Sequence record: PQ505080.1
DNA: 64,000 bases
Origin: Escherichia phage HMD-6
Strand: one strand, 5' to 3'
The position numbers and the translations under genes are program-made. Under the pieces are notes generated by a model. That model was not told where the DNA came from. It made no database searches and was given only the letters and a program-made list of their open reading frames with translations. Positions 54,416 to 55,536 of this stretch are shown here, one piece after another; position 1 is the stretch's first letter, and each line of letters begins with the position of its first letter.

Positions 54416-55177
54416 TTACAGTTCCATAAAGTTTTCTACGATGTCAATGAATGTTTTATCAGAGAAAGCGTCAACCGCCCCGTTAAACCAAACTGGGATG
54501 CCGCGATCCTCATACTGGTAAATGTCACTACGTGAAATGCCATTCTCCCCTAAATGCTGTGAGTCGTATTTGTTAACGATCAGTAGTTTAGTCCCCTTAT
54601 TACAGGCAGGGAATAGCTCCCAGTTAAAATTGATAACTGTGTTGGAGCACCCTACAAGGATAACCATATCATTGCTCGTCAGAGAAGTCAACAGGTCATA
54701 CATGTCTACATACTTTGGAGCTACTTCTCCGAAGAACACTACATTAGGCTTGACCCAAGTATACTCGCTTGCATCTACCTCAGAGTATCCAATGTCTTTA
54801 ATGACGTCATTCCCTTCATCATCCTCGTAGACTATTTCTGGCAAATATCCGTGGACATGTAAAATATCTTCATGTTTTACACCAGCACGCTCCAGCAAAT
54901 CATCTACATTGGTGGTCAGGTTGATCACACGACCAGACCAGCGGGAATACCACTCAGCGATCCGGAGATGTGCAAGGTTAGGATCAACACTGCCCAGAGC
55001 TACACGTCGTGCATTATAAAAGTCATGCACCTTATAGTAGTTCTTGGCAAAGGTGTGGATGTTACACACCTCATCGATGCTGAAATTCTCCCACATTGCA
55101 GTGCTACCAGATCGGAAAGTGGGGATACCAGATTCAGCGCTCAAACCAGCACCGGAGATAATGATCAGTCGTCGCAT
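54416..55177 (-). CDS. Sir2-family (sirtuin-like) NAD-dependent enzyme, lacks zinc ribbon
   Basis: GAGLSAESGIPTFR, TTNVDDLLERAG, HVHGY and PNVVFFGE motifs; no CxxC pairs. Confidence 0.7.
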   Translation of the reverse strand: MRRLIIISGAGLSAESGIPTFRSGSTAMWENFSIDEVCNIHTFAKNYYKVHDFYNARRVALGSVDPNLAHLRIAEWYSRWSGRVINLTTNVDDLLERAGVKHEDILHVHGYLPEIVYEDDEGNDVIKDIGYSEVDASEYTWVKPNVVFFGEVAPKYVDMYDLLTSLTSNDMVILVGCSNTVINFNWELFPACNKGTKLLIVNKYDSQHLGENGISRSDIYQYEDRGIPVWFNGAVDAFSDKTFIDIVENFMEL

Positions 55178-55185
55178 AAGTGTCC

Positions 55186-55536
55186 TCAGTAGATGTTTTG
55201 TTTAATCTCTATTCCAAACTTTTTAAACGAGTCAGCAGCAAGCATGAATTTACGAGCCGCTGATGGGTTAGAAGTATGCACGAAAATCTTCACGTTGTCA
55301 ACTACAGGAGGCTTACCAAATACAAATTTTTCCTCCAGCATAGACAGGCAATCGTACCCTTCAAATACCTCTCCAAGATCGTTGTCCATGTGCCACTCAG
55401 AAACGCGCCTGTAGAGCTTTCCCTTATCGTTAATAAAATCCATAAACTCAGAGGAATTCTTTAGCCAAAGAGCATCTGGGAGCCCATAATTTGACGGATC
55501 TCTCAAGTCATCCAGCCACACAATCAACTTCTTCAT
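55186..55536 (-). CDS. hypothetical protein (116 aa)
   Basis: ORF track; between Sir2-like and ligase genes. Confidence 0.5.
   Translation of the reverse strand: MKKLIVWLDDLRDPSNYGLPDALWLKNSSEFMDFINDKGKLYRRVSEWHMDNDLGEVFEGYDCLSMLEEKFVFGKPPVVDNVKIFVHTSNPSAARKFMLAADSFKKFGIEIKQNIY

Follow-up and report, generated by a model that had tools for sequence, protein, structure and literature searches.

What would a phage use a sirtuin for once the enzyme has lost its zinc ligands? The question arises from a 64,000-nucleotide (nt) stretch of Escherichia phage HMD-6 (sequence record PQ505080.1), here called the window, in which a 253-amino-acid (aa) Sir2-family protein and a 116-aa protein are encoded side by side on the minus strand. 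An earlier note on this DNA likened the former to the NAD-consuming Sir2 proteins (NADases) of bacterial defence systems, and left out the RNA-repair context of both genes, whose neighbours encode an Rnl1-like ligase, a P-loop kinase, a metallophosphoesterase and MazG, as published for phage V5 (PMC9503650). The window belongs to a Vequintavirus; its segment 53600-57600 is 98% identical to Escherichia phage FV3 and is matched at 90% identity or more in 121 phage records. We suggest, at somewhat less than even chances, that the phage sirtuin is the NAD+-using part of an RNA break-repair cassette, in a pathway that follows the proposal of Iyer et al. 2022; a CobB-like protein deacylase is a serious rival. 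The identity of the parts and the co-transcription of the ligase, cREC, Sir2 and MazG genes are established at the level of sequence.

Both open reading frames (ORFs) were confirmed with the extents and strand previously assigned to them, and they are regarded as real genes and not chance ORFs because of their Pfam E-values (6e-27 for the 253-aa Sir2 and 4.5e-14 for the 116-aa ORF) and their conservation, at 90% or more, across the 121 phage records. In a Pfam scan of the window proteins, listed to E <= 0.1, the 253-aa protein matches Sir2 (PF02146) with 95.2 bits (cutoff 24) over model positions 1-178 of 180, which places it in the family proposed by the earlier note and not in an unrelated Rossmann family; no other family is listed, Tpt1/KptA included. 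The PHROG search assigns the protein to phrog_2162 (3e-108). The Rossmann motifs pointed out before, GAGLSAESGIPTFR, TTNVDDLLERAG and HG, were all found, and the NAD-binding and catalytic set of Sir2 (GAGxS...FR, NxD, the HG histidine, FGE, GxS and N) is present. Among 57 members of the clade (alignment A1), S16, F21, R22, Y54, R57, R58, N90, D92, H109, the FGE loop and N202 are invariant, as are F149, E151 and S178, with H109 aligned to CobB His147.

The AlphaFold2 (AF2) model has a sirtuin fold (predicted local distance difference test, pLDDT, 90; predicted template modelling score, pTM, 0.88). The best solved structures in Foldseek are CobB, Sir2-Af1 of Archaeoglobus and human SIRT5, with template modelling (TM) scores of about 0.75 (E. 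coli CobB: E 4e-18, TM 0.73-0.76), and the same three are closest in a PDB sequence search, where CobB/SIRT5 reach 2e-21 at best. CobB-type families also rank best in NCBIfam, but all the CobB deacylase models (NF001753, NF040867 and related ones) stay well under their cutoffs, the best at 121 versus 243 bits and another at 102 versus 320. The 253-aa protein is thus a Sir2-family member with its catalytic residues intact, and presumably uses NAD+.

Absence of the usual CxxC zinc module, noticed earlier in the window protein, extends to all of its 120 homologues of at least 48% identity. The four zinc cysteines of CobB align to Y118, D135, S137 and E138 (in the CobB numbering used here, a 25-residue offset fits the PDB variant names A76, Y92, I131 and V187, with V162 off by one). 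Since this segment and its CobB counterpart are of similar length and its three strands are still predicted (pLDDT >93 in the AF2 model), the zinc ligands have been lost while the module itself was kept. Thr89, in addition, occupies the position of the canonical Gln in the TQNxD motif. When 141 full-length sequences, from 150 representatives of an exhaustive search, were tabulated together with the window protein, Thr stood at this position in 36 of 49 zinc-less sequences versus 9 of 82 with four cysteines, and in all 57 close-clade members; the four-cysteine relatives mostly retain Gln, and Thr thus co-varies with zinc loss. We found no mention of zinc loss in the phage sirtuin in Iyer et al. 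2022 (PMC9503650), and consider it a modest addition to the published account.

Residues of the acyl pocket are preserved. Y54 and R57 are the aligned counterparts of Y92 and R95 in CobB, the Tyr-x-x-Arg pair of the acyl-carboxylate pocket that binds the acidic acyl group in SIRT5/CobB. This pair is invariant in the 57 clade members, the motif FYxxRR is found in 120/120 close homologues, and residues aligned to the CobB pocket positions A76, I131 and V187 are conserved.

The 116-aa partner, previously described as having no recognisable motif, carries the described domain cREC (cyclic-phosphate processing receiver domain, PF20274), with 53.3 bits against a cutoff of 27. The same family is recognized in 53 of 54 cREC homologues, the exception being a 63-aa fragment. 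Structure prediction, which had been recommended for this protein, gave a confident model whose fold matches CheY-like receivers and retains a conserved acidic pocket. The domain was defined by Iyer et al. 2021, who predicted its role in cyclic-phosphate processing and noted its operonic link to RNA ligases (PMC7824862); ADP-ribose 1'',2''-cyclic phosphate is a further predicted substrate (PMC9503650, PMC7824862), and the domain is stated to be experimentally uncharacterised (PMC9503650). An Rnl1, kinase or phosphoesterase gene lies within 8 kb in 15 of 16 cREC-centred viral loci (at least 41% identity), the remaining one being a 585-bp fragment, while nine more distant cREC loci are essentially devoid of such neighbours. 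Linkage is to RNA ligase or NAD-processing genes and never to a histidine kinase.

Coordinates of the genes and other features are given in Table 1. Spacings between the ligase, cREC, Sir2 and MazG genes are -4, 8 and 14 nt. The 4-nt overlap of the first two, seen before, is the ATGA at 55533-55536, which holds the stop of the 311-aa ORF and the start of the 116-aa ORF; GAGGA precedes the Sir2 start and GGAGG the MazG start. This spacing, together with the hairpin and T-run after the fourth gene, indicates a single tightly packed operon, and bears out the co-expression with the RNA ligase that had been suggested for the 116-aa ORF. The annotation of phage Gotham has a terminator in the corresponding position. 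The kinase and metallophosphoesterase genes diverge from the operon at a 100-nt intergenic region, with a promoter-like site at 56512-56540 ahead of the kinase gene, and the phosphoesterase gene starts 7 nt past the kinase end. A sigma-70 promoter 5' of the ligase gene, read by eye as TTGACA...TAGACT, was rejected: about 22 nt separate its two elements, and the promoter scan gave no call. Catalytic motifs of the ligase, kinase, phosphoesterase and MazG proteins can be read directly in the sequence. PDB sequence searches returned nothing for the ligase, kinase and MazG proteins, and an uncharacterised Aquifex protein as the sole match for the phosphoesterase.

Table 1. Features of the window discussed in the text (window positions).
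Feature	Position	Strand	Matches and remarks
Sir2-family protein of a zinc-less, phage-dominated clade, 253 aa	54416..55177	-	PF02146, phrog_2162, AF2, Foldseek
cREC protein, receiver-fold domain, predicted cyclic-phosphate phosphodiesterase, 116 aa	55186..55536	-	PF20274
Rnl1-like ATP-dependent RNA ligase, 311 aa, first operon gene	55533..56468	-	PF09511 RNA_lig_T4_1 54.8 bits; phrog_562 5.7e-66; motif I KKNG
MazG-like all-alpha nucleotide pyrophosphohydrolase, 237 aa, last operon gene	53688..54401	-	phrog_671 5e-22; weak sub-cutoff PF01503
Bidirectional intrinsic terminator closing the four-gene operon	53663..53681	.	8-bp stem with 6 GC pairs, then T-run
P-loop kinase, polynucleotide-5'-kinase-like, 136 aa, divergent	56569..56979	+	PF13671 AAA_33 7.5e-11; phrog_2071; phrog_505 (polynucleotide kinase); GLPGSGKST
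Calcineurin-like metallophosphoesterase, 184 aa, candidate 2',3'-phosphate end-healing enzyme	56987..57541	+	PF12850, PF00149; phrog_547 1.6e-52; DxH, GD, GNHD
ATP-dependent DNA ligase	51776-53059	-	PF01068, PF14743, phrog_114; downstream of operon terminator
Small ORFs, 89 and 102 aa	53059-53328, 53315-53623	-	phrog_14585, phrog_7684
Phage tRNA gene cluster, 7 predictions, possible repair substrates	60477..61289	+	ARAGORN, Rfam tRNA matches
Macro-domain protein, 152 aa	3103..3561	+	PF01661 27.4 bits, cutoff 22

A sirtuin-centred phage RNA-repair neighbourhood of this kind was described as type 2 by Iyer, Burroughs, Anantharaman and Aravind 2022 (Viruses 14:1977, section 3.7.3; PMC9503650). 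Its prototypes are Escherichia phage V5 and Proteus phage Mydo, and its parts a sirtuin, a T4-like RNA ligase, cREC, a nucleotide kinase, MazG and, in some cases, a calcineurin-like phosphoesterase. The sirtuin was proposed there to remove RNA 2'-phosphates, analogous to KptA/Tpt1. All six components lie inside 53688-57541 of the window, and the gene set of rV5-like coliphages is already described as a computational prediction (2021-2022). Our literature search found no later experimental work on the sirtuin/cREC cassette, and nothing implicating it in the papers on retron Eco2 and bacterial Schlafen proteins. PhageMaP knockout data for phage Bas63 (PMC11482910) were set aside: the genes discussed there (NAD synthesis, RIIA/B and a Ro60-like protein) differ from those of the cassette, and mentions of Sir2 refer to host SIR2-HerA, not to a phage sirtuin.

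In the proposed pathway, a host ribotoxin or anticodon nuclease would cut tRNA or mRNA and leave 2',3'-cyclic phosphate and 5'-OH ends. The cyclic phosphate would be opened by cREC or the metallophosphoesterase, the 5' end phosphorylated by the P-loop kinase and the break sealed by the Rnl1-like ligase; the sirtuin would then use NAD+ to remove the leftover 2'-phosphate in the manner of KptA/Tpt1. For this step, a phosphate oxygen is predicted to attack C1'' of NAD+ with departure of nicotinamide, and His109 to activate a ribose hydroxyl for transesterification, giving ADP-ribose 1'',2''-cyclic phosphate. The product could then be degraded by cREC and MazG, perhaps together with the Macro protein encoded far away. 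Such chemistry parallels the known mechanisms of sirtuins and Tpt1.

A stronger form of the proposal makes the zinc-less, Gln-to-Thr sirtuin a genuine RNA 2'-phosphotransferase that replaces Tpt1/KptA by convergence on a sirtuin scaffold and works as a two-enzyme module with cREC. Here cREC would turn 2',3'-cyclic ends into 2'-phosphates and later linearise the ADP-ribose cyclic-phosphate by-product. We consider this form possible and rather doubtful. If true, it would give the sirtuin fold a new catalytic activity and cREC its first biochemical role; as the idea is already published as a prediction, novelty would lie only in demonstrating it.

How consistently the sirtuin keeps this company was assessed by a census of phage genomes. 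The Sir2 clade is present in 1,006 phage records (Vequintavirinae, T5-like Demerecviridae, myoviruses of ~150 kb, KVP40-like and jumbo phages), and cREC in 356, essentially none of them T5-like. A conserved core of cREC, phosphoesterase, Rnl1, kinase, DNA ligase and MazG genes surrounds cREC, and Sir2 lies within this core in a Vequintavirus contig and in six ~145 kb contigs of Mydovirus-type order, which is unlike the order in the window. The gene set recurs, reordered, in ~145 kb Mydovirus-type and ~147 kb phage loci, where MazG co-occurs and a DNA ligase gene again stands beside the cassette in a different gene order. The full cassette adjoins Sir2 in about 13 of 59 viral contigs, and of the 16 viral contigs that have a close cREC, 14 bear the Sir2 clade as well.

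Two further, unrelated lineages independently support a link to the chemistry of RNA ends or cyclic phosphates. A phosphatase of the HAD_SAK_2 family ("Swiss Army Knife RNA repair", 72.9 bits) is encoded four ORFs from Sir2 in a Tequintavirus. In the Serratia jumbo phage BF, Sir2 has an Acb1-like 2H phosphoesterase on one side and a Nudix-cREC fusion (cREC 87.5 bits) on the other; just upstream of this group are a gene annotated as NAMPT and one for an NMNAT-Nudix protein, with no Rnl1-type ligase nearby. Further contexts differ. A phage-like Bacilli contig combines Sir2 with NAMPT and NADAR, and a Planctomycete relative, 39% identical, is two genes away from an ADP-ribosylglycohydrolase (184 bits). 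Because the cyclic-phosphate-specific enzymes (cREC, 2H) recur beside the Sir2 clade, the balance tips to a reading based on RNA or ADP-ribose cyclic phosphates. The census supports a link of Sir2 to RNA-end/ADP-ribose processing in three unrelated phage lineages, with Sir2 often unlinked or solitary; the NADAR/NAMPT and ADP-ribosylglycohydrolase contexts point to a general NAD/ADP-ribose network. As a separate observation, two paralogues with two DUF7415 repeats each (123 and 111 bits) are encoded downstream of Sir2/HAD_SAK_2 in Tequintavirus APCEc03 (locus L061, 7821-8651).

Several observations weigh against the sirtuin being a dedicated part of RNA repair. No cREC could be detected in about 650 of the phage records that carry Sir2, most of them T5-like, and a search with hidden Markov models for a concealed divergent cREC beside Sir2 found none in the ~147 kb and T5-like loci. 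Other contigs of 141-153 kb carry Sir2 on the same contig as the cassette at a distance of ~30 kb, and in about 17 Marinobacterium-group genomes the clade gene stands alone among housekeeping genes. Phages with the full cassette are interrelated, so shared ancestry inflates the apparent conservation and synteny may be inherited. The protein is acidic (isoelectric point 4.7, net charge -16, and -8 in the former zinc module), which is unexpected for an RNA binder, and the retained CobB/SIRT5 acyl-pocket residues fit a deacylase equally. We know of no sirtuin shown to act on an RNA 2'-phosphate. Moreover, a kinase, a metallophosphoesterase and Rnl1 could heal and seal RNA alone, with no 2'-phosphate step, judging from what is established for T4 Pnkp/Rnl1 and the Clostridium thermocellum Pnkp phosphoesterase.

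Many of these points would be accommodated if the sirtuin were a CobB/SIRT5-like protein lysine deacylase (deacetylase, desuccinylase or demalonylase) acting on host or phage proteins, its place in the operon reflecting co-regulation or synteny and no common pathway. To this alternative we assign a real, clearly minor probability. It agrees with CobB, Sir2-Af1 and SIRT5 as the nearest sequences and folds, with retention of the Y54/R57 pair, catalytic H109, the FGE loop and the pocket residues aligned to A76, I131 and V187, with the solitary gene in Marinobacterium and with its occurrence in most T5-like phages without cREC or Rnl1 as partners, and an acidic sirtuin would suit basic protein substrates. 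NADAR, ARH (ADP-ribosylglycohydrolase), Nudix and Macro genes occur near clade members, and enzymes of these families also process O-acyl-ADP-ribose, the product that they would handle in this case. However, the NCBIfam CobB models remain far under cutoff, the co-varying loss of zinc ligands and Gln-to-Thr change suggest an altered substrate cleft, and a deacylase leaves unexplained the recurrent association with cREC, 2H and HAD_SAK_2 in three unrelated phage lineages.

The gene sets in Serratia phage BF and in the Bacilli contig, along with the second predicted substrate of cREC, raise another alternative, namely that Sir2 and cREC, possibly with MazG, act not on RNA but on soluble molecules derived from NAD+ or ADP-ribose, in counter-defence or NAD economy. 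NAD+-derived immune signals or toxic ADP-ribose phosphates might then be consumed or reshaped. We consider this unlikely: sirtuins consume NAD+ and do not degrade ADP-ribose derivatives, a free NADase would harm a phage that itself needs NAD+, similarity to defence-type NADase Sir2 is missing, and in the window translation of the module is coupled to that of an RNA ligase.

Slightly less probable still is a macromolecular mono-ADP-ribosyltransferase of the SirTM type that modifies a host protein or nucleic acid. Such sirtuins are known (cited in PMC9503650), and the Planctomycete relative near an ADP-ribosylglycohydrolase gene and the Macro-domain gene in the window are compatible with this activity. 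On the other hand, the Macro gene is 51 kb from the cassette, unlike the adjacent sirtuin-Macro pairs of toxin-antitoxin-like systems (PMC9503650), the best PDB matches show no specific SirTM-type similarity, and the surrounding genes are those of RNA repair. The Macro gene, to which the earlier note had drawn attention, does match PF01661 above cutoff, but the match is weak and partial, limited to model positions 1-32; a role of its product in processing ADP-ribose products of the cassette is possible. In FV3, gene FV3_00191, annotated as 'phosphatase', maps near its position (coordinate conversion approximate).

A defence-type NADase, the likeness suggested by the earlier note, is rejected as no PADLOC model matches the phage Sir2 (zero matches at E <= 0.01), the nearest relatives are deacylases, and at E <= 0.1 PF02146 is the sole Pfam family listed, to the exclusion of SIR2_2, the defence-type family. 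The broader options of that note, namely deacylation, ADP-ribosylation and manipulation of NAD pools, all stay in play as rivals.

Outside phages, a genome-collection scan, with an alignment of the zinc-less Sir2 subgroup as the query, gave the chromosomal Marinobacterium sirtuin mentioned above. It is of the zinc-less phage type, conserved in the genus at ~47% identity, and may be a domesticated phage gene. In the Pfam-checked locus L094, it is located between an SNF-family transporter and a gamma-glutamyl cyclotransferase-like gene, while the downstream gene differs in L095; at several Marinobacterium-type loci, another Sir2 homologue, only distantly similar, follows some 3-6 kb downstream.

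Some features of the wider neighbourhood were also recorded. The two small ORFs between the terminator and the DNA ligase gene accompany the ligase/cREC/kinase cassette in the ~145 kb Mydovirus-type and ~147 kb phage loci despite reordering, and may belong to the cassette system. Among records at least 90% identical to 53600-57600, 18 are named 'Campylobacter phage' (e.g. MG065654, MG065658) and look like mis-attributed or contaminant Vequintavirus genomes. The tRNA cluster begins ~3 kb beyond the phosphoesterase gene. It includes a 99-nt tRNA-like gene at 60946-61044 (+), with a 4-base anticodon (atcc) according to ARAGORN and an Rfam tRNA match of 35.5 bits; the RefSeq entry of FV3 lists five tRNAs, without this gene and without the predicted tRNA-Ser at 60757-60847.

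Farther on, a group I intron, matched over its full length (Rfam RF00028, 81 bits versus a gathering threshold of 50) at 62809-63087 (+), splits the terminase large-subunit gene (62393-63943), whose N-terminal ORF with Walker A (62393-62821) stops within the first bases of the intron match. The terminase is annotated in two pieces in related records, and in rV5 this site is occupied by an HNH homing endonuclease. Likewise, FV3 has its anaerobic ribonucleotide reductase large subunit annotated in two parts with an HNH endonuclease gene between them (ORF106-108, mapped to about 33900-36900 of the window), which suggests a second homing-endonuclease or intron insertion. A stretch of ~2.2 kb without annotated coding sequences in FV3 (record 104328-106594) coincides with a flip of gene orientation and GC skew; the corresponding window segment, by approximate mapping about 15900-18200, holds only short ORFs (<=82 aa) and may have a role in regulation or as an origin.

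If the predicted chemistry is true, sirtuins would dephosphorylate RNA with NAD+, phages would carry a yeast-like (2'-phosphate) branch of tRNA repair against host ribotoxins, and NAD+ supply would be tied directly to the rescue of translation during infection. Presence of the clade in about 1,000 sequenced phages (T5-like, rV5-like, KVP40-like) makes its function relevant for phage counter-defence. At the same time, little is added overall, the genes being annotated in >100 records, the partner domain included in Pfam, and the neighbourhood and hypothesis published in 2021-2022.

Comparison with known systems places the sirtuin and its cassette among several partial counterparts. Defence-type Sir2 NADases (ThsA, DSR1/2, SIR2-HerA, SPARSA) share with the phage protein the superfamily and the lack of zinc-binding cysteines, whereas the latter keeps the beta module of canonical sirtuins, is phage-encoded and comes without their sensors or partners. 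The class III deacylases CobB and SIRT5 have in common with it GAGxS, NxD, HG, FGE and GxS along with the Tyr/Arg acyl-carboxylate pair; it departs from them in the replacement of zinc cysteines by Tyr, Asp, Ser and Glu, the change of Gln to Thr, sub-cutoff NCBIfam scores and its location in an RNA-repair operon. With KptA/Tpt1 the sirtuin would share its job, NAD+-dependent 2'-phosphate removal after healing and sealing, as judged from context and chemistry, but KptA/Tpt1 belong to the ADP-ribosyltransferase superfamily, unrelated in fold and sequence to the Rossmann-fold sirtuin. Like T4 Pnkp with Rnl1 and bacterial Pnkp/Hen1, the phage cassette comprises a 5'-kinase, an end-healing phosphoesterase and an Rnl1-family ligase, and plausibly counters anticodon nucleases. 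Its kinase, in contrast to T4, is stand-alone, its phosphatase is calcineurin-like, as is the phosphoesterase domain of bacterial Pnkp, and not of the HAD type, and T4 is without counterparts of the NAD+-linked genes Sir2, cREC and MazG. The closest match, indeed the same system, is type 2 of Iyer et al.: every listed component is present in the window, the genus (Vequintavirus) is that of V5, and nothing substantive differs. To this system the present analysis adds the operon anatomy, the zinc loss with the Gln-to-Thr change, the retention of Tyr-x-x-Arg, and a census of how often Sir2 is unlinked from its partners.

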